Assembly: GCA_018265615.1 (NCBI GenBank) | Contig: JABLYX010000019.1 | Location: forward strand, 13,165-77,164 | Source of the DNA: Lentisphaeria bacterium | GTDB taxonomy: Bacteria > Verrucomicrobiota > Lentisphaeria > Victivallales > Victivallaceae | Direction: 5' to 3' | DNA length: 64,000 bases | Part shown: positions 4,347 through 52,665 of the stretch, in pieces | How positions within the stretch are numbered: position 1 is the stretch's first letter | How the letters are laid out: each line of letters begins with the position of its first letter | Program-made: the position numbers and the translations under genes | The notes under the pieces: model-generated | Databases searched by the model: none | The model's input: only the letters and a program-made list of their open reading frames with translations | Told to the model about the DNA's origin: nothing

Positions 4347-4958
4347 GTGACGACTATGACCCTCACGCTGATGACCTCGATTCAGATTCTCGTGCTGCTG
4401 AACCCGTTTGCGGTGCTTTCGACCTTCCTTGCGATGACGCCGGAGTGTACGGAGCATGACCGGCGGCAGATCGTGCTCCGCGCGATGGCGGCGGTCGTCG
4501 TCTCCGGGATTCTGCTCTTCTTCGGCGGAAGCGTGATCTTCTCGCTCTTCGGCATCAACATCGACGTGTTCCGCATCGGCGGCGGCGTGATCCTGATGGT
4601 ATGCTCGATCCTGCTGGTATGGGGGAAACCGGAGCCGAAGCGGGAGAACGGGAACGACCCCGGACACGACATCGCCGTGGTTCCGATCGCGATTCCGATG
4701 GCGGTCGGCCCCGGAACCGCGGCCGGACTGATCGTGATCGGCATCGAGAGCCGCGGCGTCTGGGCGACGCTCTCGAACCTCTTCGCACTCTGCCTCGCCG
4801 CCGGACTCCTGACCATGCTGCTCCTGTTCGGAAGCAGGGCCGAACGGCTGCTGCGCAAACAGGGCATTGCGATCATCACGAAGCTGACCGGGCTCTTCCT
4901 CTCCGCCATCGCCGCGAGCATGATCCTCGAAGGGATCCGCAACTTCTTCTCCCTCTGA
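4347..4958 (+). CDS. MarC-family (UPF0056) integral membrane protein
   Basis: 203 aa, ~6 TM helices, characteristic MarC N-terminus (ILVLLNPFAVLSTFLAMT). Confidence 0.8.
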   Translation: MTTMTLTLMTSIQILVLLNPFAVLSTFLAMTPECTEHDRRQIVLRAMAAVVVSGILLFFGGSVIFSLFGINIDVFRIGGGVILMVCSILLVWGKPEPKRENGNDPGHDIAVVPIAIPMAVGPGTAAGLIVIGIESRGVWATLSNLFALCLAAGLLTMLLLFGSRAERLLRKQGIAIITKLTGLFLSAIAASMILEGIRNFFSL

Positions 4959-4975: not shown

Positions 4976-5010
4976 ATAAAAAATGACAGCGGAGCAGAGC
5001 TGCCGCCGTC
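4976..5010 (-). terminator. Possible rho-independent terminator for the pilT-like gene (imperfect 8-bp stem + U-run on the minus strand)
   Basis: Minus-strand RNA reads gacggcgg-cagctctgct-ccgctgtc followed by AUUUUUUA. Confidence 0.35.
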
Positions 5011-5037: not shown

Positions 5038-7248
5038 TCAGTAGGCGTCGTCGGCCTTGTAGTCGAGCATGTAAGTCTGCATCTCCTCAAGGCTGATCTT
5101 GCCTTCGCTGTAGAGCGTTTCGAGGGACTTCTGCATCGTGATCATGCCGTCCTTCGCGCCGGTTTCAAGCAGCGACTGCAGCATTGCGGTCTTGCCTTCA
5201 CGGACCAGCGCCTGAACCGGCGGGGTCCCGACGAGAATTTCGAACGCGGCCACGCGCCCCTTGCCGTCCACGGTCGGCAGCAGCCGCTGCGAAATGATCC
5301 CGAGGATCACGCTCGCGAGCTGCAGCTTGATCTGGTTCTGCTGGTGCGACGGGAACGAGTCGATGATACGGTCGATGGTCTGCGGCGCGCTGTTCGTGTG
5401 CAGCGTGCCGAACACGAGGTGGCCCGTTTCCGCCGCGGTCAGCGCCGCCGCGATGGTTTCGGTATCGCGCATTTCGCCGACGAGGATCACGTCGGGGTCC
5501 TCGCGCAGCGCGTACTTCAGCGCCGCCGAGAACGAGTGCGTGTCGGAGTGGACCTCGCGCTGTTCGATCAGCGACATGATGTTGCGGTGCACGTATTCGA
5601 TCGGGTCCTCGATCGTGATGATGTGCTCCGCCTTGTTGCGGTTGATGAAGTCGATCATACTCGCAAGGGAGGTCGACTTACCGCTGCCGGTCGGACCGGT
5701 GATCAGGATCAGCCCCTGCTGCTTCGACGTGAGCTGCAGGATCTGCGGCGGCAGATTCAGGTCCTCCGGCTTCGGAATCTTGCTGACGATCACGCGGCAG
5801 ACGATGCCGACGGTTCCGCGCTGGTGGAAGCCGTTCACACGGAAACGCCAGTTTTCGCTTTCGCCGGTCTCCTGGTTCATCACCAGCGAGATCGAAAGCG
5901 CAAGGTCGACTTCACGGTTCTCTTCGAATTCAACGCGCTGCACGGGGTTCAGGATGCTGTTCAGCAGCCGGGCGGTATCCGCCCCGGCCAGAACCGGCAG
6001 CTCCAGCGGGCGCAGCTCGCCGTGGATGCGCAGCACCGGACTCGAACCCGCCGAAAGCAGAAGGTCCGATGCACCGGTTTTCACGGCCGTTTTCAGCAGC
6101 CGGCTCATGTCGATGAACTGGATATCCGGATCTTCCGCATCCTCGGCGCTGCCGTACTGGCTCGCAAAGGAGTCGACGCCCGACTCCATGCCCTTGAGCA
6201 TGAGCTGCAGCTCGTCGCGGTTCGAAACCGCCTCGTTCGCCTCTTCCAGTGAAATGAATCCCTCTTTATAAAGGCGGAAGATCGCGCGCGTGAAGGTCAT
6301 CATGCCGCTCGTGCCGCCGCGCTTGATCGCCTCGGAGAGCGAACGCATGTCGCGGTCCCCCACCAGCTTCTTGACCGTCGGCGTGCCGACCATGACCTCG
6401 AGCGCCGGAACCATCCCCTGCCCGTCGGCGCGCGGAATCAGCCGCTGCGCGACGATGCCGACCAGCGAGTTGCCCAGGTCGCTCGCGATCTGGAGCCGCT
6501 GCTCCTCCGGATAGAGGTCGACGATACGCTCGACCGCCTGCACGGTGTCGCCGGTATGCACGGTCGTGATGACGAGATGCCCGGTCATGGCGGCGGCGAT
6601 CGCCACCTGCACGGTATCCATATCGCGCATTTCGCCGATGACGATCACATCGGGGCTCTCGCGCAGGGCCGCGCGCAGGGCGTCGGAGAAGCTTGTGGTG
6701 CTGGAATTGAGCTCACGCTGCGTCACCAGGCAGTTGATGTCGCGGTGCAGGAACTCGATCGGGTCCTCGATCGTGATGATGTGCTTGTTGAAATTGTGGT
6801 TGATGTAGTTGACCATCGCCGCCAGCGTGGTCGATTTGCCGCTGCCGGTGGAGCCGACCACGACGATGATGCCGTTCTTCTGCGCGCACATCTCGGTCAA
6901 TGTCGCGGCGGGGAGCCCGAGCTCCTCGAAAAAGAGCGCTTCACCGGGATAGACCGGACGCGCGACGAAGGCGGGCCCGGCCAGCGTATCGAGAAAGTTC
7001 AACCGGAAGCGTTCCCCGGTCGGCAGCGTGAACGCCGCGTCATAGCTGCCGCGGCTGCGGTAATCCTGCTCGGCCTTCGAAGAGATGCACTGCTTGCGGA
7101 ACGCATCGATTTCCTGCGCGGTCAGGAGCTCCTCGCCCTCCGGCAGCACCAGTCCGGAGCGCCGGAACGCGGGCGGTTTCCCCGCGGAAGCGAAAAGGTC
7201 CGATGCCGCCGATTCCATGGCGTATTGCAGAAGTGCGCTGATGTCCAT
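5038..7248 (-). CDS. Tandem-fused double PilT-type twitching-motility / type IV pilus retraction ATPase (two complete PilT modules in one 736-aa polypeptide)
   Basis: Two full sets of PilT motifs. Walker A: GSTGSGKST and GPTGSGKST. Walker B / Asp box: HIITIEDPIEF and HIITIEDPIEY. His box: GHLVITTVHT and GHLVFGTLHT. PilT C-terminal AIRNLIRE-like segments occur in both halves. Confidence 0.85.
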   Translation of the reverse strand: MDISALLQYAMESAASDLFASAGKPPAFRRSGLVLPEGEELLTAQEIDAFRKQCISSKAEQDYRSRGSYDAAFTLPTGERFRLNFLDTLAGPAFVARPVYPGEALFFEELGLPAATLTEMCAQKNGIIVVVGSTGSGKSTTLAAMVNYINHNFNKHIITIEDPIEFLHRDINCLVTQRELNSSTTSFSDALRAALRESPDVIVIGEMRDMDTVQVAIAAAMTGHLVITTVHTGDTVQAVERIVDLYPEEQRLQIASDLGNSLVGIVAQRLIPRADGQGMVPALEVMVGTPTVKKLVGDRDMRSLSEAIKRGGTSGMMTFTRAIFRLYKEGFISLEEANEAVSNRDELQLMLKGMESGVDSFASQYGSAEDAEDPDIQFIDMSRLLKTAVKTGASDLLLSAGSSPVLRIHGELRPLELPVLAGADTARLLNSILNPVQRVEFEENREVDLALSISLVMNQETGESENWRFRVNGFHQRGTVGIVCRVIVSKIPKPEDLNLPPQILQLTSKQQGLILITGPTGSGKSTSLASMIDFINRNKAEHIITIEDPIEYVHRNIMSLIEQREVHSDTHSFSAALKYALREDPDVILVGEMRDTETIAAALTAAETGHLVFGTLHTNSAPQTIDRIIDSFPSHQQNQIKLQLASVILGIISQRLLPTVDGKGRVAAFEILVGTPPVQALVREGKTAMLQSLLETGAKDGMITMQKSLETLYSEGKISLEEMQTYMLDYKADDAY

Positions 7249-7379
7249 AACTCACGTTTCCTCATTGTTGTATGTAAATATCATTGAAGTAAGTCCATGC
7301 CTCTGCTTGAAAAGCACAAGTATATCTGTTACTTTAAGTGTAATATCGCACGAAAGCAACCCCGGAAGCTCACAAAATC

Positions 7380-7823
7380 ATGAAAAAGTTGCAGATAAAG
7401 ATCAAAATGGCCGAAAACTGCGCCGATCTCACTCCGGCAAAAGCGCATCCCGACGATGCGGCGTTCGATCTCCGCTCCCGCGTGGAAGCGGAGCTGCCTC
7501 CGGGAAAGAGCGTACTGGTCCCGACCGGGCTGTTCATCGAGCTGCCGCCCGGCTATGAGGCGCAGGTGCGCCCCCGCAGCGGGCTCGCGCTCAAACACAA
7601 TCTCATGCTGACGAACTCCCCCGGCACGATCGACGCGGGTTATCGCGGCGAAGTCGGGGTCATCATGTTCAACGCGGGCAAAGAGCCGTTCCCTGTGCGG
7701 CGCGGCGACCGCATCGCGCAGATGGTGATCGCGCAGCTGCCGGAAATCGAGCTCGCCGCCGCGGAGGATCTTTCGGAGACGGGGCGCGGCGCGGGCGGCT
7801 TCGGCAGCACCGGCCGCAGCTGA
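7380..7823 (+). CDS. dut: dUTP diphosphatase
   Basis: 147 aa; conserved dUTPase motifs ([45 protein letters not shown]). Confidence 0.9.
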
Positions 7824-34151: not shown

Positions 34152-34910
34152 ATGATGAAAAATCCGAACCGCTCCCATCGCATACTGCGCATGATGCGCC
34201 TGTGCCCGTTCACATTGATCGAGCTCCTCGTCGTGATCGCGATCATCGCAATCCTCGCGGCGATGCTGCTGCCCGCGCTGCAGCAGGCGCGGGAACGCGG
34301 ACGCAGCTCCAACTGTCAGGGAAACCTCAAACAGCAAGGGATGCTCGGGCAGATGTACAGCAGCGACTTCAAAGACTACATCATGCCGGCACGCGGTGGA
34401 AACTGGTCGCGCAATCATGGATACATGCTGAAAAACAGGGCAGGATATCAGTTCGACGCCAAAATTTTCCAGTGTCCCAGCCAGACCGCCAAAAATTTCG
34501 CCGAAGATCCGGAAAAATTCCGGGGCAGCTACGGGATGAATGCCTGCAACCAGAAAGCAGTCGACGGAGAGAATCCCGCCGGCCTGATGGCCAGCCTCAC
34601 CGACCTGCCGGATAAGACTCTCCCCAGCCGCAAGTTGACACAGATTAAAAGCGCTTCATCCGTACTGATGATTCTGGAACTCTCCGCCAATTCAGTCGCC
34701 TATTATGCCAGCGGAGACATCAGAACCGTTTATCCGTCAACCGGTCAGACCGGCGTCCGCCATGCCGGATCGGCGAATTTCTGCTTTGTCGACGGCCACG
34801 TCTCCAGCTACAGACAGGCGGTCGTTTTCAGCGAAATCGCCTATGACGCCAGCAATTACAATGGACCGCTCTGGTACAAATATACCGGACACATGAAAGC
34901 AAACAAGTGA
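34152..34910 (+). CDS. DUF1559 protein with a prepilin-type N-terminal cleavage/methylation domain (H-X9-DG family)
   Basis: [28 protein letters not shown] class-III signal, followed by a DUF1559-like body. AAGGAG RBS before the ATG. Confidence 0.75.
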
Positions 34911-35949: not shown

Positions 35950-36633
35950 TCACGCCCAGAAGCCCTTTCCCCGGGCGTCATTGCGCTGGATATGGTGCTT
36001 GATGAAATTCATGATGAACTCCTGCTTTTCGCGGTCGAGGTTCCGGGCGATGAAACGTTTCCGGCCATTTCCCGGCCGGATCGCGACTCCGTATACGGGA
36101 GTGTCGTTCTGCCGGATTCCTGTGGCCTCCACCGCGACCTTGCCGATTTCGGAGAGTTCGCAGACACGGGTGACGCCGAAGCGGCCGATGCCGGAAAAGA
36201 CCTCCAGTCTGCCGCCGTTGATCCGCAGTTCACCTTTTCCGAAGAGCATCATCACGGTTCCGCCCAGGATGCCGAGTCCGACCAGCTGGAACGGGATGAG
36301 GAACAATTTCATCGGCCATGGAGCGCCGCTCCCGAACCATACGGCCGACGTGAAACCAGCGACCGCACCGCACCAGAACAGGCAGAAGAAGCAGAGCACC
36401 CACACCGTGTGCGAATAATAGCGGAAGCACAGGACCTCTTCATACGGGGGAACCGCTTCCACCCGGATCCCATGCGGCGGCAGGTCGGCCCGGAACAGCC
36501 GCTCTTCCCCCGCCGCCCGGGCCAGCTCCGCATAGCTGTGATTGGTTTTGCAGCCGCGGCAGTAGGCGAGGTCCGAGGAAACATTGAAATCCTCCTCCGG
36601 AATCTCCCGCCCGCATTCGGGACAATGAATCAT
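35950..36633 (-). CDS. Zinc-ribbon / 2-TM / PH-like domain membrane protein, paralog 1
   Basis: N-terminal CPECGREIP...CRGC zinc ribbon, two hydrophobic helices, C-terminal ~90-aa domain. It shares architecture with the two genes upstream. Confidence 0.5.
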   Translation of the reverse strand: MIHCPECGREIPEEDFNVSSDLAYCRGCKTNHSYAELARAAGEERLFRADLPPHGIRVEAVPPYEEVLCFRYYSHTVWVLCFFCLFWCGAVAGFTSAVWFGSGAPWPMKLFLIPFQLVGLGILGGTVMMLFGKGELRINGGRLEVFSGIGRFGVTRVCELSEIGKVAVEATGIRQNDTPVYGVAIRPGNGRKRFIARNLDREKQEFIMNFIKHHIQRNDARGKGFWA

Positions 36634-36738
36634 ATGCGTCCGTATCCTTTCATCCGTTTCGGGGAAGAACATAGCGTGTCTTCCGTAAAAATGCAAATCG
36701 GAACCCGGAAATTCAGCATCGGCACTCCGGGCTGCGGA

Positions 36739-37380
36739 TCACACGTCCTCCCGCTTCCGGGAGGCAACACGGGGAAACGGCGCGGAATCCGGATTTTCCC
36801 CGCCCGGTTCCAGGATCCGGCTTTCCAGCCATCGGACGGCGGCGGCAAGGCGGACCGGAGGCAGGCCAGTCCCGAACCGCTCCACGGTTCCGCTCCTCAA
36901 CAGGCAGTCGATCCGGTACACATAGCCGTTCCGGGAGCAGCTGCGCCCCAACTTGAAGAGCCGCACCTCATCCACCGGAATCTTCCGGAGGAAAACTCCG
37001 CGGGAAACGAGAAAGAAGCCGGGTACACGCCGGATCACCAGATGTCCGAAGAGCGACTGCAGCATAATCAGCAGCAGTATTACCCAGAAAATCAGCTGCA
37101 CCCACCACAGCGCCGGATCGTGCCGCACACTTCCCGAAACACAGACCGCTGTATACGCAGTCAGCACCAGCGGCATGAGGCAGCTCTCCGGCGTGATGCA
37201 TCCGACCCGCAGCGTCCGGCTCTCATCCAGCTCGCGTACCTGCGGCACCGTCCGCCGACCGGACAGCGCCGCAAGCCCGGCGGACGGACAGCGGCAGCCG
37301 CAGAAGGAACACCTGACCCAGGAACCCATTTTCGCCTTCCGGGGAATTTCTTTCGCACAGAACGGACATTTCAGCATCAT
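36739..37380 (-). CDS. Zinc-ribbon / 2-TM / PH-like domain membrane protein, paralog 2
   Basis: CPFCAKEIP...CSFCGC zinc ribbon, two TM helices, C-terminal domain (RLFKLGRSCSRNGYVYRI...). Confidence 0.5.
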   Translation of the reverse strand: MMLKCPFCAKEIPRKAKMGSWVRCSFCGCRCPSAGLAALSGRRTVPQVRELDESRTLRVGCITPESCLMPLVLTAYTAVCVSGSVRHDPALWWVQLIFWVILLLIMLQSLFGHLVIRRVPGFFLVSRGVFLRKIPVDEVRLFKLGRSCSRNGYVYRIDCLLRSGTVERFGTGLPPVRLAAAVRWLESRILEPGGENPDSAPFPRVASRKREDV

Positions 37381-37445
37381 GCATCCTCCCCTGTCATCTC
37401 CGCACCCCCGGCAACCCTCCGTAACCCGGCAACGGAAAATGCGGA

Positions 37446-38088
37446 TCATGCGTCTTTGTCCTTCCAGCCCGTAACCTTCGCCAAATCCGGCGGCGCCTCG
37501 TCCATGCGCCGGTTCATCCAGTCAATCGCGGCGGCGAAGCGGTACGGGGAGCGCTCGCCGCCGACCGAAAATGAACTGCTGTCCCAAAGTGTAAACCCGA
37601 TCCGGAAATGCCGGCCGAACCGGCCATACTCGAAATATTCAAGCGCGATCTGTCTGATCCCGTCAAACGGGATGCGTCTCTCCCGGAATCCCGCTTTCAG
37701 CACAAACATCCGCCCTTCGCACGTGATCCGCATCGGCCCGGCCCCCCCCGGAGCAAAGCGAATAAAGCCGGAAAGCGCCGCATCCCGCCAGCATGAGCAG
37801 AACGGCAAACAGCGCCGGGATGAAAAACATCCCCGCAAAGCATGCCGCGCAACCGGCGGCCAGCCCTCCGAGGAGAATCTTCTCCGCGCCGGTCTCCGCC
37901 GAAAGCACCAGGTCCCCCGACGAATTTCCGGCGATGTCGGCCACCCGCACCATCCCGCCGGAACAATACTCTGCAAGCTCGTCCTCGTCGAACTCACAGC
38001 CGCAATCGGCGCACCGCAAAGGAGTGTCCTGAAGAAGCAGCCTCCTTTGAACCAGTTCACCGCAGCAGCAGAGACATTTCAAAGACAT
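37446..38088 (-). pseudogene. Paralog 3 of the zinc-ribbon/2-TM/PH-like family, split by a frameshift at a G8 homopolymer (coding-strand Gs = Cs at 37742-37749)
   Basis: N-terminal part (MSLKCLCCCGELV...CADCGC + TM helices) is in the frame of ORF 37663..38118. C-terminal part (PMRITCEGRMFVLKAGF...) is in the frame of ORF 37446..38060. Both frames read through the C8/G8 run. A 1-nt contraction (G7) or 2-nt expansion (G10) would fuse them. Confidence 0.45.
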
Positions 38089-38308
38089 ACTCTCACTCCC
38101 GCTGAGAATTCGCAGCAAACCGCGTCCGAATCATCCGGAACCTCACAACAGAAAGTACCGTTTTTTTCTGCGAATGCAAGCTCAGGGGAAAAAAAGTCGT
38201 TTTTTTTGTTTGCAGGGGGGAATTGCACTTTGATTTTAGCGGAAAATGTGATAACATAAAAACAGGGCTGATCCCCGTCGAACAACCCCGAACGAAAGGA
38301 GGCGAATC

Positions 38309-45876: not shown

Positions 45877-46653
45877 TCAACGCCTCAGCCGGTAACCGCC
45901 GTCGACACACAGGTCGGTTCCGGTAATCCATCCCGCGGCATCCGACAACAGGAAAACGGCCGGCCCGGCGACATCGTCCGGCTCTCCCATCCCCAGCGGA
46001 TGGTCCTCTTCTATTCGCCGCCGTCCCTCCAAGGTCAGCCTGTCCAGATCGTCCCGGGTGATTCCGGTATTGGCAACATAACCGGGCGAAACCGTATTGA
46101 CGCGGATTTTCCGTCCGGCAAGTTCCGCGGCCAACGCACGGGCGCCGCTCAGCAGAGCTCCCTTTGTGGCCGAATAACTGCATTTTCCCGCTGTGCCGAC
46201 GCCGGCCGTCACCGAACTGATGAAAACAAAAGAGCCGCCGGACGGGATCGAATATTTTTTCTTCGCAACAATACCGGCCAAACCGAATCCGGCCGCAACG
46301 TTAAGCTGGTAAGCCGCCAGGAAATCAGTCAATGCTGTCACCTTCAGGGGACAGGAGAAAGCTGTTCCCGCCGCATGCACCAACCCATCGATTTTTCCCA
46401 ATTCAGCAACGGCCTCGGCGATGGCCGGCTCCATTTCCGCAAAATCATGGAGTGCAGTAAAATCAATGCTGATCATATGCGAACGGACACCGGCCGGAAA
46501 CGCCGCGACGCACTCTTCCAGCCGCTCACAGCACCGCCCCATCACAATCACATCGGCGCCGGCATCGGCGCATCTCCGCGCAATGGCACGACCAATTCCG
46601 GAAGAGGCGCCGGTCACGATGATTTTCTTCCCGGTCAAAGTAAAATCAATCAA
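45877..46653 (-). CDS. SDR-family oxidoreductase (FabG-like 3-oxoacyl-ACP reductase)
   Basis: TGASSGIGRAIA Rossmann motif; catalytic YSATK. Confidence 0.85.
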   Translation of the reverse strand: MIDFTLTGKKIIVTGASSGIGRAIARRCADAGADVIVMGRCCERLEECVAAFPAGVRSHMISIDFTALHDFAEMEPAIAEAVAELGKIDGLVHAAGTAFSCPLKVTALTDFLAAYQLNVAAGFGLAGIVAKKKYSIPSGGSFVFISSVTAGVGTAGKCSYSATKGALLSGARALAAELAGRKIRVNTVSPGYVANTGITRDDLDRLTLEGRRRIEEDHPLGMGEPDDVAGPAVFLLSDAAGWITGTDLCVDGGYRLRR

Positions 46654-46882
46654 AATTCTCCCTCCCGATCACATCCATCAGGGAGCCGACAGTATCAACT
46701 TCACTCAACTGCGCACCGGAAAGCTTCCGAGAAAAATTCCGGTCTGCAAACGCGACGATCGACATGATCGCAAGGGAATCGAACTCTTCGAAATCCTTCA
46801 GATCCGTCGTTTCCGACAACGTCACATCATCATCCAGTTCAAGAAGTTCCACAAGTTTTTCAAAAAATTCATTCTTTTTCAT
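46646..46882 (-). CDS. Acyl carrier protein
   Basis: 78 aa; phosphopantetheine-attachment DSL motif (EFDSLAIMSIV). Confidence 0.8.
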   Translation of the reverse strand: MKKNEFFEKLVELLELDDDVTLSETTDLKDFEEFDSLAIMSIVAFADRNFSRKLSGAQLSEVDTVGSLMDVIGRENFD

Positions 46883-46896
46883 AACAACTCTCCATG

Positions 46897-47868
46897 TTAT
46901 TTCTGTCTCTGCCGGCAGGTCAAAACGGTTGCTCCATATGAATAACCGACGCCAAAACCGGCAATCAAGATACGCTCTCCACTCCGAAACACATTTTCCG
47001 CCTGAAGCTTGTGCAGCAGAATCGGAATGCTCGACGATACCGTATTACCCGTTTCTGCAAGGTCGATATGAAAACGGGAATCTTCCACCCCCAACTTTTC
47101 CTGCAGATACCGCAACATATACTTGTTCGCCTGATGAAAGACATAATGATCGATGTCGTCAGGAACAAGCCTGTTCCGCTCCAACGTCTTTTCAACCAGC
47201 GCAGGAACCGTCTCAATTGTAAAGCTGAAGATCTCAGGACCATTCATATAAAGGAAAGGCGAACCGGATTCCCCATCCGCCCGGGCTCTTCCGCCTCCTC
47301 CTCTGACAATCAGATTCTCCGCCCCCCGGCCATCGGTTCCCAGGACGAATTCACCAACATCAAATAACGAATCCGCCTCCAGGATAACCGCTGCGGCCGC
47401 ATCTCCGAAAATGGAGCGGTTCCCCTTATCGGACGGATCAAGATAGCGGGAATAGGTTTCCGCCGTAATCAGCAGGATATGCTCCGCGACGCCTCCGGCA
47501 AGCAGGCCTTTGGCGACAGCAAGCCCGTAAACAAAACCGGAGCAACCCAGGTTGAAGTCAAAAGCCCCGACCCCGGTTGAAAGCCCGAGACGACTCTGAA
47601 GCAGCGACGAGGTCCCCGGCAGCGGATAATCGGGGCTCTGCGTACACAGCAGCAGAAAATCGATCTTCGAGCGTTCGAAGCCATCCAGAACTTTTTCTCC
47701 GGCCCTGACCGCCATATCGAGAACAGTCTCGCCCGGAGCAGCCAGATGCCGGTTCCGGATGCCGACCTTCTTCTCGATTTTCTTCGCGGAAAAATCGGAA
47801 AACTCCTCTTCCAGCATCCCGTTGGACAGCAGGCCTTCCGGCAAATAATAGGCAGATTTCCCAATCAT
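46897..47868 (-). CDS. 3-oxoacyl-ACP synthase III-like (FabH/KAS III-family) enzyme
   Basis: Active-site Cys region (NLGCSGFVYGLAVA), His (HYVFHQANKYM) and Asn (GNTVSSSIPILL) triad positions conserved. Confidence 0.85.
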   Translation of the reverse strand: MIGKSAYYLPEGLLSNGMLEEEFSDFSAKKIEKKVGIRNRHLAAPGETVLDMAVRAGEKVLDGFERSKIDFLLLCTQSPDYPLPGTSSLLQSRLGLSTGVGAFDFNLGCSGFVYGLAVAKGLLAGGVAEHILLITAETYSRYLDPSDKGNRSIFGDAAAAVILEADSLFDVGEFVLGTDGRGAENLIVRGGGGRARADGESGSPFLYMNGPEIFSFTIETVPALVEKTLERNRLVPDDIDHYVFHQANKYMLRYLQEKLGVEDSRFHIDLAETGNTVSSSIPILLHKLQAENVFRSGERILIAGFGVGYSYGATVLTCRQRQK

Positions 47869-48296
47869 ACTTCACCAGCCTTTCGATGTCTTGTCAAAAT
47901 ACGGTCAATCAGGATAAAGTTCCACAGCATCGTAACCGGAATGACCGCACAGCTCAGCAATGTCCGGTTTCCCCCGGGCAGGCCGGCGATCAGAATCGCC
48001 AGTATACCGGTTCCAAGCAGCATTCCACTCAGGTACGATACGAAATAACCCGCCAGCTTCCGCAATGACATTGCGGACTGAAACACAAAACGGGAATTCA
48101 GCCAGTACGACAGCAGCAGTGTCAGGAGATAGGATGTGCAATAAGAGAGATATGCATTCCATCCGCACACGTCATTCAGGAGAAACAGCAGCACAATGGA
48201 TACCAGCGTCACAGATGCACCGACCAGAGAGAAGCCGCTGAACTTCAGAATCAGCACACGCCAGTAAGATGGTATCTGCACTTTATTCATTTTCAT
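47865..48296 (-). CDS. GtrA-family polyprenyl-phosphate-sugar flippase
   Basis: 143 aa, 4 TM helices; GtrA-like N-terminus (KFSGFSLVGASVTLVSIVLLFLL). Confidence 0.8.
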   Translation of the reverse strand: MKMNKVQIPSYWRVLILKFSGFSLVGASVTLVSIVLLFLLNDVCGWNAYLSYCTSYLLTLLLSYWLNSRFVFQSAMSLRKLAGYFVSYLSGMLLGTGILAILIAGLPGGNRTLLSCAVIPVTMLWNFILIDRILTRHRKAGEV

Positions 48297-49281
48297 CTTT
48301 TCGCTTGATGATATAGCCGGGACGCCCCTTCACCTCTTCATAGATTCTCCAGATATACTCGGCAATCACGCCGAGCGACAGAAGGATCAGGCCGCTGAAA
48401 AAGGAGATGAAGAGAATAATGGAGGTCCAGCCAGGGACGGTAAGCCCCCAGAACCGGCTGTCTCCCCAGATCGCGATATACAGATAAAAAATAATGATGA
48501 TCAGGGAAAAGCCGGAAAACAGCAGCCCCATGCGGTTGATCATCATAATCGGGAAGGAGGAGGACGAAAAAAACGTATCCTTGGCCAATCGCAATTTCTT
48601 GCGGAACGACCAGCGGGAACTCTTCCTGTTGAGCCCCAACGGGCGCGAATACTGATAATAATACGGTTCGAATCCCAACCGCAGCACTTCGGAAATCGTC
48701 GCTGTGTTGATCGGGTGGATTTTCCGGTTGATGATATCAATCACCTCACGGTCAATAAAAAAGGTATCGGCTCCTCCGACCGGATACCTGACCTCCGAGC
48801 ACCAGTTCATCACAGTATAGAAGCATTCTGAAAAAATGCGGCTGAAGAGAGGGTCTTCCCGGTTGATGCGGTGCGGAATAATGATCTTATGCCCGTTCTC
48901 CCACAGGCGATACATGTCAACGATCGTCTCGTAAGGCTGCTGCTCATCATCCGGAATCGGCATGGCGCAGGCGCCGCGCACGACGGAAAGCCCGGCGAAG
49001 ATCGAGTAGTGGCTCGTGTAATTCCTGCTCAACTGGTAGGCGCGGACATTCGGAAACTTCTTTTCCAGTTCCAGCGCCATGCGGTATGATTCATCTTTCG
49101 AGCCGTCGTCCATCACGATGAACTCAAACGGAATCTTCTCCCGTTCCAGAAGTTCCTTCAACTTCAAATACGCTTTCCGAATCCGTTCTTTGCTGTAATA
49201 GGACAACAATATCACAGAAAGCGTCTTATCATCTTTCTTGCCGCCAACTGCTATATTCAACATGGTTTGACCTTTCGTCAA
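48283..49281 (-). CDS. GT2-family polyprenyl-phosphate glycosyltransferase (GtrB/CsbB/DPM1-like)
   Basis: GT-A motifs (LSVILLSYYS...DDGSKD) and two C-terminal TM helices, typical of GtrB-type UndP-sugar synthases. Confidence 0.85.
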   Translation of the reverse strand: MTKGQTMLNIAVGGKKDDKTLSVILLSYYSKERIRKAYLKLKELLEREKIPFEFIVMDDGSKDESYRMALELEKKFPNVRAYQLSRNYTSHYSIFAGLSVVRGACAMPIPDDEQQPYETIVDMYRLWENGHKIIIPHRINREDPLFSRIFSECFYTVMNWCSEVRYPVGGADTFFIDREVIDIINRKIHPINTATISEVLRLGFEPYYYQYSRPLGLNRKSSRWSFRKKLRLAKDTFFSSSSFPIMMINRMGLLFSGFSLIIIIFYLYIAIWGDSRFWGLTVPGWTSIILFISFFSGLILLSLGVIAEYIWRIYEEVKGRPGYIIKRKDENE

Positions 49282-49347: not shown

Positions 49348-52300
49348 CTATTTTTCCATTATTTTGCAGAGTTCATAATTCTTTCTTCGCATGAACACAA
49401 AGCAGAGTCCACCTGTAATCAAAATCCCAAAAACCGATAAAATGTTTCCAACATGAGCTCCCGGAGCAGACCAGCGAACAGTAACCTCATGCTCGCCGGG
49501 AGGAACGGGGATTCCCAACAGACCATTGTTGATTCCGTAAACCTTTTCCGCCCTGCCGGAAACAGTCGCCTGCCAACCATCCTGGAAAGTTATGGGAATG
49601 CAAAGCATTCCGAACCTCCCCGAACGGTTATCCACTTTCCCCCGCCATGTCGAATGTGCATAACTGATGTTTGTCACGGGAGAAGATTTAAATGCGGCTG
49701 CTGCAGCATCAATTACCTTGTCAAAATCTTTTTGACGAATCAGAGAAAGTGACATCAACCTTGAGTTGTGATTAATACTTCTATTATTTACCATAAAACA
49801 AATCTCGGAAACAGTTTCCGACGGTAACGCCATTCGGTAAACCCTGCGTCCGGGCTCAGTCCGGAACACTCGCATATGCCCATCACAAATTGTTAAAAAT
49901 TCACAGGGGTATCTTCCGTCGTATTCAAGCTCAAGCATATGGAACCCCGATTGCGGATCTGCAATTGATACAGTTCCGGAATAAGACAATTTTCCTGAAA
50001 CATTTTGAGGTAAGGAAACTCTATTCTTTGTCGTTATGGGTGAACCGTTTCTGATGAGAGGAATACTTTCCTGAGGTAATGCTTCCTGTTTAGGGAATGA
50101 TTCAGGGAATAAGCTCGCAACAGCCGCTGCGTCAGAGCCGTCAACAAAATTAAAATGAGAAAGCCGCACACGAGAAAGCTCTTCATTCGTAAAACACTTA
50201 AGTTGATCGATGCTGATCCGATGCGTGTACAAATAGCCGAAGGGTAACTCCGTTTGCCGTGTTGATTTCCAAACCCCATTCAGGTTTTCCGGTTCCCCGT
50301 AACCAAATAATTTTGCTCCGGAATCAATGGAAATATGTGTGGAAATTCCCAGCAAAAGCTCTGTCGCGGGGTCAAGAAGAAATGAAAATTTGTTAGAATT
50401 GAAAACATCAACGGCTTCCGGCGCATATTTTTTTATCGTCGCGGGAAAAAGTGAATTATATGTGCTGACCCCCGAATAATTGTAAATCAACGGCCAGCCG
50501 TAGTGTTGAATCTTATCCCTCGAAGGCAAAAACAAGATCCTGCCGTCCGCACTCGATTCATCTACCACAGGTTTGACTTTGTGATAGATATCCCCTTGAA
50601 AAGCTCGAAAATTAAAAAAAGTCTTCTGCAAAGGGTGTCGTTGATTAATGGTCGGATTGTGCACTAAAAAAAGTTCGATTGCAACAACGCCCATCAATAA
50701 AAACGGTAAAAAACGGCAAATTCGACTTGCGGCCAGCCAGGAGAAAAATAAAAGATATATTCCAGACAAAATGGTAACATAAAGCAATACAGAAGAGCAT
50801 ACAGAAAAATATGCATATAATATAACCAAAACAAAAAACAAAAACATTAATGCAAATACATTAACTTGCCGATTTCTTTTCGGTTCCTTTATGTAATCTT
50901 CCAGAAAATTTACAATAATGACAATAGAAGAAAAAACAAAAATAAATGTCCAGCGATAAGCAAAGACATGTCGAAAGAAAAGCACAGCCAGTGGCAGAAC
51001 CATCATACCGGCAATGAACCAATATCGCCATTGGGGCCGAATGAAAAGATAATAGGCTGCGGCCCAAAAAACCAAAAGGCTGCTTGCCAAAACGGTCGCT
51101 TCATAATAATTATGTTGCACAAAATGAGATAAGACGCCAAAGTAATTGTTCGATATAAGCCGCCCCAGATAAATCATTACATCTTCAAAAGATGTGACTG
51201 CAAGAAAATTAGCTGCAGCCTTGGCGCCAACATCACTACGTCCCGATTTGCCGAAAAGCACCAGCCACGGTACGCTGATCCAGGCACTGATCATAAATCC
51301 AAGCATTCCGTTCAGAAACAATTGCAACTCATCCGTCAACCATTTTTTCAAGCGAAATCCGCGGAGTAACGAACGCGCCAGAAGATAAAATGCGGAAAAT
51401 ATTCCAATCATACTGAAGAAGTAAACAGAAAACATGCTCAATAACGCATAATTGAGCACACAGAAGAAAAAACTTTTCCTTTTATCAGATAATAGGAGTT
51501 CCAGCAAATACATGTTGATTGTAAAGAAAACCATCGCAGTCAAAAACTGGTAATGCTGCCCCCATAAAACATTGTAACTGGAAAAAGTCCACAGCATCAC
51601 CCCAATCCAAATAAAATAAGGATTACGGGCAATACGTTTAAAATAAAGCCAGGAGAAACATGCAATAACCAGATATTTCACCAATGCAATCCAAATCATA
51701 GCCTCCATAAACCGGTCAAGAGGCACAAAGAACAGAAGCAGTGAAAAGGGGTCCAGCAACTGCATCGTCAAAGTTACTGCTGAAACCCCTAAGCCCATTT
51801 GCCACAGCATCATTTGAAATGAGCCGCTTTTTAAATTCTCAATCAGGAATCGATAATATGGCAGATAACTTCGGATTGTATCGGATCCGATATCCTGAAA
51901 GCAGTAATAATACGGTCCCCAAATGTAATTCCGATAAAGCAGAAAGAAAATAATCAAGACGGATAGAATGATTCCATGAAAGGGATGGCGGGAAAAATAG
52001 TCCTCACTCTTTTTCAAAGCCCATTTCCCGGCAGAAAATATCTCTTCCAACCATCGTCCGACACAGATCGACAGCAGTAAAATCACAAACTCCGCCAGAG
52101 AGACCAGCAAAAGATTGATCCACAATATTGATTCGCACGGATACTGCTGAAAAAATTTCGAATTTGAAACCAGATAACAATCATTTCCGGAGGAACTCCA
52201 TTCACTTCCACGAGCAGTTTGCTTCCAATCCGCAACATGATTCCGACTGACAAAAACATCGGAAATTTTTTCACCGGAAATAAAATATGAAAAAATGAAA

Positions 52301-52665
52301 TTACGCTGGATGCGAATCGCACGAAGAGAAAATTGTTCTCCACTCCGGCTTCCGAAGTCAAACCGGAGCCGACGATATTCAACACTGGCGGGCAAACGGA
52401 AATGAAGAGCAGCAAATCTTCCGGGCGAATTGTACTCTTTCGTTTCACTCGCCTTTTGAGAATAAGTATCGGGAGAAAAAAAGGGATCGAGATAAAAAAC
52501 CTGGACAGCAGTGTCTCTCGTGGAAGACATCTCTACAAACACATCTGTTTTCAGGATGAACTGCAAAAGAATCGCATTTAAAACAACGAAGCAGAGAATG
52601 CCGATGCCAACACCCTTCGCATGCAATAGCCGCGATACAATACTCGGAGTAAACGCTTTTGCCAT
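49348..52665 (-). CDS. YfhO-family GT-C-type membrane glycosyltransferase (1105 aa; extra ~180-aa N-terminal domain; C-terminal TM anchor)
   Basis: ~13 TM helices, a large extracytoplasmic C-terminal domain, and a final TM helix (VGNILSVFGILITGGLCFVFMRRK), which matches YfhO topology. The coding DNA is conspicuously AT-rich (~35-40% GC). Confidence 0.7.
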   Translation of the reverse strand: MAKAFTPSIVSRLLHAKGVGIGILCFVVLNAILLQFILKTDVFVEMSSTRDTAVQVFYLDPFFSPDTYSQKASETKEYNSPGRFAALHFRLPASVEYRRLRFDFGSRSGEQFSLRAIRIQRNFIFSYFISGEKISDVFVSRNHVADWKQTARGSEWSSSGNDCYLVSNSKFFQQYPCESILWINLLLVSLAEFVILLLSICVGRWLEEIFSAGKWALKKSEDYFSRHPFHGIILSVLIIFFLLYRNYIWGPYYYCFQDIGSDTIRSYLPYYRFLIENLKSGSFQMMLWQMGLGVSAVTLTMQLLDPFSLLLFFVPLDRFMEAMIWIALVKYLVIACFSWLYFKRIARNPYFIWIGVMLWTFSSYNVLWGQHYQFLTAMVFFTINMYLLELLLSDKRKSFFFCVLNYALLSMFSVYFFSMIGIFSAFYLLARSLLRGFRLKKWLTDELQLFLNGMLGFMISAWISVPWLVLFGKSGRSDVGAKAAANFLAVTSFEDVMIYLGRLISNNYFGVLSHFVQHNYYEATVLASSLLVFWAAAYYLFIRPQWRYWFIAGMMVLPLAVLFFRHVFAYRWTFIFVFSSIVIIVNFLEDYIKEPKRNRQVNVFALMFLFFVLVILYAYFSVCSSVLLYVTILSGIYLLFFSWLAASRICRFLPFLLMGVVAIELFLVHNPTINQRHPLQKTFFNFRAFQGDIYHKVKPVVDESSADGRILFLPSRDKIQHYGWPLIYNYSGVSTYNSLFPATIKKYAPEAVDVFNSNKFSFLLDPATELLLGISTHISIDSGAKLFGYGEPENLNGVWKSTRQTELPFGYLYTHRISIDQLKCFTNEELSRVRLSHFNFVDGSDAAAVASLFPESFPKQEALPQESIPLIRNGSPITTKNRVSLPQNVSGKLSYSGTVSIADPQSGFHMLELEYDGRYPCEFLTICDGHMRVFRTEPGRRVYRMALPSETVSEICFMVNNRSINHNSRLMSLSLIRQKDFDKVIDAAAAAFKSSPVTNISYAHSTWRGKVDNRSGRFGMLCIPITFQDGWQATVSGRAEKVYGINNGLLGIPVPPGEHEVTVRWSAPGAHVGNILSVFGILITGGLCFVFMRRKNYELCKIMEK

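Follow-up and report, generated by a model that had tools for sequence, protein, structure and literature searches.

The PilT retraction ATPases known to date are single-module chains of ~345-385 amino acids (aa) acting as homohexamers, and structures of the enzymes from Pseudomonas aeruginosa (3JVU/3JVV), Aquifex aeolicus (2EWV/2GSZ) and Geobacter metallireducens (PilT4, 6OJX) display an N-terminal N2D and a C-terminal domain (CTD) with the catalytic motifs. PilU, with structures from P. aeruginosa (9N32) and Vibrio cholerae, is a second, diverged PilT paralog working with PilT. It is a separate gene product with its own homohexamer, and PilT and PilU have been found to interact as separate homohexamers, while mixed rings are not formed (PMC6821130). 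Open points of their cooperation are whether the rings are mixed or separate, how they are oriented when stacked, their stoichiometry and what the disordered PilU tail does (PMC6821130, PMC12607626). Here, we describe a gene in which two PilT modules are joined in one chain. It lies in a 64,000-nucleotide stretch of a Victivallaceae genome (Lentisphaeria bacterium, assembly GCA_018265615.1, contig JABLYX010000019.1, positions 13,165 to 77,164), referred to as the window and used for all coordinates below. The gene (5038..7248, minus strand) is complete and represents a phylum-conserved architecture in which two anciently diverged retraction-type ATPases, a divergent N-terminal one (N-module) and a canonical C-terminal one (C-module), are connected by a tether of ~25 residues and probably work as a paired retraction motor.

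The coding region is a single open reading frame (ORF) with an ATG start, 736 codons plus stop and zero internal stops. Pfam detects two T2SSE domains in the protein, and TIGR01420, the NCBIfam model of the PilT/PilU family, matches it in two stretches with 842.6 bits in total. Taken separately, both halves exceed the curated cutoff of this model (319.1 bits) over its full length, with 390.7 bits for aa 1-369 (model positions 2-343 of 343) and 457.2 bits for aa 370-736 (positions 2-334 of 343). Hence, the proposal of an earlier note on this DNA, that two full PilT modules are fused into a single 736-aa polypeptide, holds. That note had also asked for a search of the fusion in related genomes, and there it recurs: a scan of one genome per species yielded orthologs of 80-94% identity in six independent Victivallis / Victivallales assemblies, all with residues 1-736 in one frame and no internal stop. 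Among metagenome-assembled Victivallis genomes, full-length orthologs are 88-94% identical, and by these relatives the window is assigned to Victivallis, a gut bacterium of the phylum Lentisphaerota. Moreover, a large protein collection contains at least 119 full-length homologous clusters (723-755 aa, 46-93% identity, 96-100% coverage), and those bearing a taxon name are all assigned to Lentisphaerae, Lentisphaeria, Victivallaceae or Lentisphaerota. Strong purifying selection acts on both modules and on the linker. Against six close relatives, dN/dS according to Nei-Gojobori amounts to 0.05-0.18 for the N-module and 0.03-0.20 for the C-module, with similar or lower values for the linker, where two comparisons gave 0 nonsynonymous versus 13-14 synonymous changes. 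An artefact, i.e., two adjacent pilT-like genes misjoined by a sequencing or assembly error at the junction, is conceivable in so far as a related phylum offers an example of neighbouring but unfused pilT-like genes (Opitutaceae locus L041, 20-nt gap). Its probability is practically nil, though. More than 115 clusters, originating from different projects, and the six Victivallis assemblies all share the uninterrupted frame, so that a missed stop or frameshift is excluded, and the linker is conserved at the protein level with synonymous-only change in two comparisons. The artefact was therefore rejected on these comparative data.

Catalytic positions were compared in an alignment of 143 single-module PilT/PilU-like proteins, 122 N-modules and 122 C-modules, based on a hidden Markov model (HMM) of five solved PilT/PilU sequences. 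Only columns at least 85% conserved in the single-module proteins were considered, and P. aeruginosa PilT (PaPilT) numbering is used. In all 122 members, both modules carry K136, E159, D160, P161, E163, E204, R206, D207, H222 and H229 as well as the arginines R80, R82, R97, R176, R194 and R239. Hence, both modules keep every residue needed for ATP binding and hydrolysis and are apparently active. The motifs of the N-module read GSTGSGKST (Walker A), IEDPIEF (Asp box), GEMRD (Walker B) and TGHLVITTVHT (His box), those of the C-module GPTGSGKST, GEMRD and TGHLVFGTLHT. All motifs quoted earlier, including the extended Asp boxes IITIEDPIEF and IITIEDPIEY and the His boxes HLVITTVHT and HLVFGTLHT, were recovered. 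Given this conservation and the purifying selection, the view that the protein is not a degenerate duplicate stands, and degeneration of one half was ruled out for the Lentisphaerota family; it does apply to distant tandem relatives (see below).

Both halves align end to end with solved PilT structures, and the N2D domains that had been assigned to each are indeed present according to this alignment and to an AlphaFold2 model. The N half matches best Thermus PilT2 (5FL3; 293 bits versus 240 for PilU), the C half G. metallireducens PilT4 and Aquifex PilT (~332 bits versus 272 for PilU). The AlphaFold2 model, calculated from a 118-sequence alignment, reached a mean predicted local distance difference test (pLDDT) score of 88.4 for the full protein and ~90 for the N-module. 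In Foldseek comparisons with whole PilT4, PilT2 and PilU chains, each module gave a target-normalised template modelling (TM) score of ~0.85-0.93 at a root-mean-square deviation of 1.6-2.6 Å, with values of 0.91 and ~2 Å for whole PilT4 chains. Thus, the model predicts the full PilT N2D+CTD fold for both modules. No solved chain in the PDB covers both modules, the query-normalised TM score being at most 0.45. An anti-phage defence ATPase was considered as well and ruled out: the best match among the PADLOC defence-system models (mad8, 53.5 bits versus 842.6 bits for the PilT family) is confined to the P-loop regions and constitutes P-loop noise.

While both modules share this fold, they are not equivalent. 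The halves are 41% identical over 346 residues and fall into separate clades, by which a recent internal duplication was ruled out. As judged from the alignment, the C-module (aa 380-736, 5041..6111, minus strand; N2D aa 380-~487 followed by the CTD) is a canonical PilT. It is 47-50% identical to known PilTs (TM ~0.91), with 50% identity and TM 0.91 for G. metallireducens PilT4, and retains E219, D242, R239, R276 and R294. Residues E219, D242 and R294 are invariant among its 122 members, R276 is kept in 98%, and position 253 is occupied by Arg (75%) or Lys (25%), with Lys in the window protein. The N-module (aa 1-352, 6193..7248, minus strand; N2D aa 1-~101, CTD aa ~107-352), in contrast, has lost five conserved charged CTD residues that known PilTs possess, three of them published inter-protomer interface residues. 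Here, E219 is replaced by Leu (84%) or Met (16%), R253 by Ala (92%), R276 by Met (94%), D242 by Asn (64%) and R294 by Ala, Gly or Ser. Leu at position 219 also occurs in the PilB of locus L008.

Three of these positions were targeted by mutagenesis in P. aeruginosa PilT, where E219 and D242 are located at both the open and the closed interfaces between packing units and R294 at the open interface (McCallum et al. 2019, PMC6858323). Most mutations within this set of interface residues abolished twitching, although the E219K variant was less stable and is hard to interpret (PMC6858323). Of the conserved open/closed interface residues E219, D242, R239 and R294 (PMC6858323), all four are 100% conserved in the C-module, whereas only R239 is left in the N-module. 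Because these interface residues are lost and the catalytic ones kept, the N-module is best described as having a preserved ATP site and a putatively rebuilt inter-protomer surface. The AIRNLIRE region (PaPilT 288-295) reads PVQALVRE in the C-module, in which R294 and E/D295 are 100% conserved and the R-E core is thus kept, the initial half of the motif being divergent. PTVKKLVGD, with R294 missing, is found at this place in the N-module. The C-module differs from known PilTs in an additional, family-specific N2D hairpin insertion of ~10 residues (aa ~457-467 in the window protein). An insertion of at least 4 residues at this site (PaPilT 75-79) is present in essentially all 122 C-modules versus 2 of the 143 single-module proteins.

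The linker (aa 353-379, 6112..6192, minus strand) starts with a conserved motif, continues as a variable acidic stretch and then passes into the C-module. Across the family, 19-26 residues separate the module envelopes, and residues 356-377 were predicted to be disordered by AlphaFold2. Its start follows the motif (K)GMESGVDxF with invariant G353 and M354. Together with the preceding helix it reads ELQLMLKGMESGVDS, which resembles the C-terminal tail of P. aeruginosa PilU, DLRLMIKLGSESDAD. Tails of this type are also found in Aquifex PilT and in several PilU- or PilT2-like single-module proteins, while canonical P. aeruginosa PilT and the C-modules are devoid of them. In case of PilU, the disordered C-terminal tail has been proposed from modelling to wrap PilT in a stacked hexamer-hexamer complex (PMC12607626).

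The relation of the halves to the PilT and PilU clades was addressed by a neighbour-joining tree (350 match columns, Kimura distances, 100 bootstraps, PilB outgroup). All N-modules, including those of the distant tandem proteins P0123, P0124, P0125, P0130, P0143 and P0152, form one clade with a bootstrap of 83, which holds tandem proteins only, its sole single-module members being truncated tandem fragments. A further clade (bootstrap 70), placed within the canonical PilTs, comprises the C-modules of the core family and those of P0123 and P0125. Hence, the halves are old, diverged paralogs, each in its own clade. As to a tandem of PilT-PilU type, which the earlier note had offered as a variant of its reading, only the resemblance remains. 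Like PilU, the N-module combines the tail motif L-x-L-M-[IL]-K-x-G-x-E-S with a Walker A lacking Pro, I202 and S226, and it stands to the C-module as one diverged paralog to another. Unlike PilU, it is covalently joined to its partner, has GEMRD and HLV where PilU has GE[IV]R[DS] and HLC (next to a GATGTGKS Walker A), and lacks R294, which PilU keeps. Its clade joins the PilU-containing group with 4% bootstrap, deep nodes being below 5%. With clade-specific HMMs, N-modules score 56 bits lower and C-modules 116 bits lower on PilU than on PilT. The N-module was therefore rejected as a PilU ortholog; based on tree and clade HMM scores, it represents a separate and divergent paralog of the PilT family that has a few characters in common with PilU.

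Tandem PilT is a conserved protein family of the phylum Lentisphaerota and not confined to the genome studied here. HMMER was run exhaustively against 1.84 billion cluster representatives (50% identity), and among the best 150 hits only ~15 representatives have two modules, the remainder being single-module PilTs, often with unrelated N-terminal extensions. In the distant tandem proteins P0152 (named Verrucomicrobiota), P0143, P0130 and P0202, substitutions affect the Walker A Lys, Walker B Glu and/or His-box His of one module or of both, and these proteins are probably tandem pseudo-ATPases. These degenerate tandems of Verrucomicrobiota and other lineages have the two-module architecture in common with the Lentisphaerota family, and the N-modules group together (bootstrap 83). 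As their catalytic residues were lost, the Lentisphaerota family represents the case with both motors intact.

Several loci from this survey deserve mention. The P0152 gene (L077 987-3017) adjoins genes for sigma-70, FHA, sigma-54, FliW and CsrA proteins. P0124 (L078 10001-13075, 1024 aa) is a three-part variant, in which the two PilT modules follow an N-terminal extension of ~300 residues with only a faint PatA_N-like signal. The two separate pilT-like genes of L041 (9635-12198) belong to an Opitutaceae metagenome-assembled genome from a sister phylum within the Planctomycetota-Verrucomicrobiota-Chlamydiota (PVC) group, and the first of them carries a non-PilT N-terminal extension of ~120 residues. 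This pair was dismissed as direct fusion precursor as neither gene falls inside the N-module clade. Loci of Planctomycetota and Coxiellaceae (L008, L012) that gave long matches in tblastn turned out to contain separate pilT, pilB and pilC genes rather than fusions.

Considering its family membership, the tandem protein most likely retracts a type IV pilus or pseudopilus at the expense of ATP. It would assemble into one or more PilT-type hexameric rings at the base of a type IV filament machine, the genes of which would lie in other parts of the genome, and ATP would be used there to draw pilin or pseudopilin subunits back into the membrane. The classical PilT ring, which engages the platform protein, would be contributed by the canonical C-module, and the N-module would serve as a permanently attached second motor of fixed 1:1 stoichiometry, possibly in an auxiliary, PilU-like role such as added force. 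The altered surface (E219L/M, D242N, R253A, R276M, R294A/G/S) would render the N-module mechanically non-equivalent. Regarding assembly, six chains could form a two-tier structure in which the tether connects an N6 with a C6 ring, and it is towards this arrangement that we lean slightly and tentatively in preference to a single ring. Tandem-ATPase chains such as KaiC and the type II AAA+ proteins (p97/NSF/ClpB) commonly stack two rings, which is one reason for this lean. By analogy, these proteins share with tandem PilT the two P-loop modules, the short linker and the combination of one canonical with one specialised module, but they belong to a different branch of the ATPase superfamily. Further reasons are that PilT and PilU form separate interacting homohexamers (PMC6821130), that published models stack two hexamers (PMC12607626), that the PilU/Aquifex-type tail motif constitutes the conserved start of the covalent tether, and that the C-module surface is fully canonical.

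In PilT-type rings, N2D:CTD packing units are formed between neighbouring chains, so that a single alternating ring is geometrically possible as well. This is the trimer of dimers suggested in the earlier note: three chains would give a pseudo-hexamer N-C-N-C-N-C, an obligate C3 motor with two kinds of interface, every second one of which would be static or gated in another way owing to the altered N-module surface. We consider it possible rather than probable. In accordance with such a ring, the losses of interface residues in the N-module are confined to one surface and leave every ATP-site residue in place, the linker is tightly constrained yet, with 19-26 residues, long enough to reach a neighbouring protomer, and the N clade is without free-standing members, as expected after duplication and fusion within one ring. 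The C-module, on the other hand, shows no non-conservative compensating changes at conserved positions, PilT and PilU form no mixed rings (PMC6821130), and from in-vivo work it was concluded that PilT requires C2 and C6 states, whose protomers are all equivalent (PMC6858323). Structure prediction speaks neither for nor against it, as the N-module CTD did not dock on the C-module N2D in a sub-construct of N-module CTD, linker and C-module N2D (predicted TM score, pTM, 0.64, about the value for two undocked domains), and the full-length monomer prediction (pTM 0.53) gave no confident relative placement of the modules. Published interface contact pairs do not separate one ring from two either, the core contact residues being conserved in both modules; given the place of nucleotide binding in this ATPase family, N2D-CTD contacts may be intra-chain and thus may not discriminate between the ring models. 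Other arrangements are unlikely. Several points count against the two-tier paired motor preferred here. PilT4 and PilU hexamers often crystallise in an alternating C3 state of open (O) and closed (C) interfaces (OCOCOC; PMC6858323, PMC12607626), as would suit a single ring. Moreover, the tandem may have originated by fusion of paralogs or by duplication, fusion and asymmetric divergence; the tree, with deep nodes below 5%, is compatible with both, and the latter origin would favour the single alternating ring. The PilT/PilU analogy may not transfer, the N-module not being a PilU ortholog, and with both pTM values uninformative rather than negative, all assembly states are drawn by comparison. 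Finally, what connects the protein to a filament is its family membership, together with a single, distant prepilin-type gene of the window.

Alternatively, only the C-module might be a working motor and the N-module a regulatory or scaffolding pseudo-motor, an ATP-binding adaptor (e.g., to the platform or a regulator) or part of a process unrelated to pili. The loss of R294 and of the interface residues E219 and D242 would fit this, as charge-reversal mutants at such sites mostly abolished twitching, with E219K being unstable (PMC6858323). So would the lower scores that the N-module always obtains against PilT models, the absence of pilus genes nearby and the degeneration of the distant tandems P0152, P0143, P0130 and P0202 to pseudo-ATPases. 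Nonetheless, all catalytic residues of the N-module are 100% conserved in 122 sequences, the Walker B Glu, the two His of the His box and the conserved arginines included, which is unexpected for a mere scaffold, and its dN/dS is as low as that of the C-module, so that this alternative appears improbable. A paired retraction motor of two intact ATPases therefore remains the preferred explanation.

In full-text literature searches, neither a natural tandem PilT nor pili of Victivallis were found to be described, and the source annotations name the tandem proteins merely 'PilT/PilU family type 4a pilus ATPase', which hides their architecture. The architecture, a conserved pair of covalently joined retraction motors of which one is remodelled, is not described in the papers that could be searched. 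With both motors catalytically intact, one remodelled interface and a conserved tether, the family offers a stoichiometrically defined natural complex for cryo-electron microscopy and single-molecule work as well as a set of natural interface variants, and gives evidence that two retraction ATPases in permanent physical association can be selected for. In addition, an unusual filament motor is thereby assigned to Lentisphaerota, a phylum of gut and environmental bacteria that has been little studied and possesses pilin-like genes. Somewhat doubtful, yet attractive, is the idea that a canonical PilT ring and a specialised PilT-like motor act as one obligate 1:1 machine, be it a covalent C3 hetero-ring (with E219L, D242N, R276M and R294A) or a tethered double ring. 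If true, this would be the first natural asymmetric PilT-type motor and a stoichiometrically locked sample for studying how PilT-PilU-type pairs make high retraction force.

The genomic surroundings agree with what had been noted before, i.e., a MarC-family gene (4347-4958, plus strand) and the dUTPase gene dut (7380-7823, plus strand) as neighbours without flanking pilus genes; the minus-strand orientation of the tandem gene can be added. Upstream of the MarC gene lie genes for an XRE-cupin regulator, a major facilitator superfamily (MFS) transporter and a hybrid histidine kinase, while dut is followed by genes for a CpsB-like phosphatase and a flavodoxin. Tandem pilT and dut diverge from an intergenic region of 131 bp (7249..7379). 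On the other side, a terminator-like hairpin with T-run (4985..5004, minus strand) is located 34 nt 3' of the stop codon; it matches the consensus weakly and, with 1 site observed versus 2.3 expected in shuffles, is by itself not significant. The GC content of the gene (0.61-0.65) equals that of the surrounding DNA, and a foreign origin was accordingly ruled out. The divergent dut / tandem-pilT pair is also present in Lentisphaerota ZTH (CP119760, L073 9342-12196), where the tandem protein is 58% identical and ispF lies immediately downstream; a functional link is not apparent.

It is common for pilT to be unlinked from other pil genes. Neither tblastn with PilB and PilC nor Pfam revealed PilB, PilC or further PilT genes in the 64-kb window, and genes for type IV pilus or type II secretion machinery are absent within 10 kb of the tandem gene in the window and in four other family members from different lineages. 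Thus, the absence of nearby pilus genes holds for the tandem family generally, as far as the window and these four relatives are concerned. A prepilin-type gene with class III signal sequence and a DUF1559/SBP_bac_10 N-terminus is found at ~34200-34910 (plus strand), 27 kb from the tandem ATPase. It is the only gene within the window resembling a type IV filament substrate, and its presence suggests that such substrates exist in the host organism.

Elsewhere in the window, no Rfam family reached its gathering score. Between 45000 and 53000, GC content drops sharply from ~0.62 to 0.39-0.45 (at 49-53 kb). Glycan/lipid-type genes on the minus strand of this low-GC island, named from their ORF translations, comprise an acyl carrier protein (ACP)-like (46646-46882), a ketoacyl-ACP synthase III (KAS-III)-like (46897-47868), a GtrA-like (47865-48296) and a family 2 glycosyltransferase (GT2)-like gene (48283-49281), accompanied by a gene for a polytopic membrane protein of 1105 aa (49348-52665). 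The region looks like a horizontally acquired surface-polysaccharide island. Furthermore, three neighbouring small Cys-rich ORFs on the minus strand (35950-36696, 36739-37449 and 37663-38118) resemble paralogous zinc-ribbon proteins.

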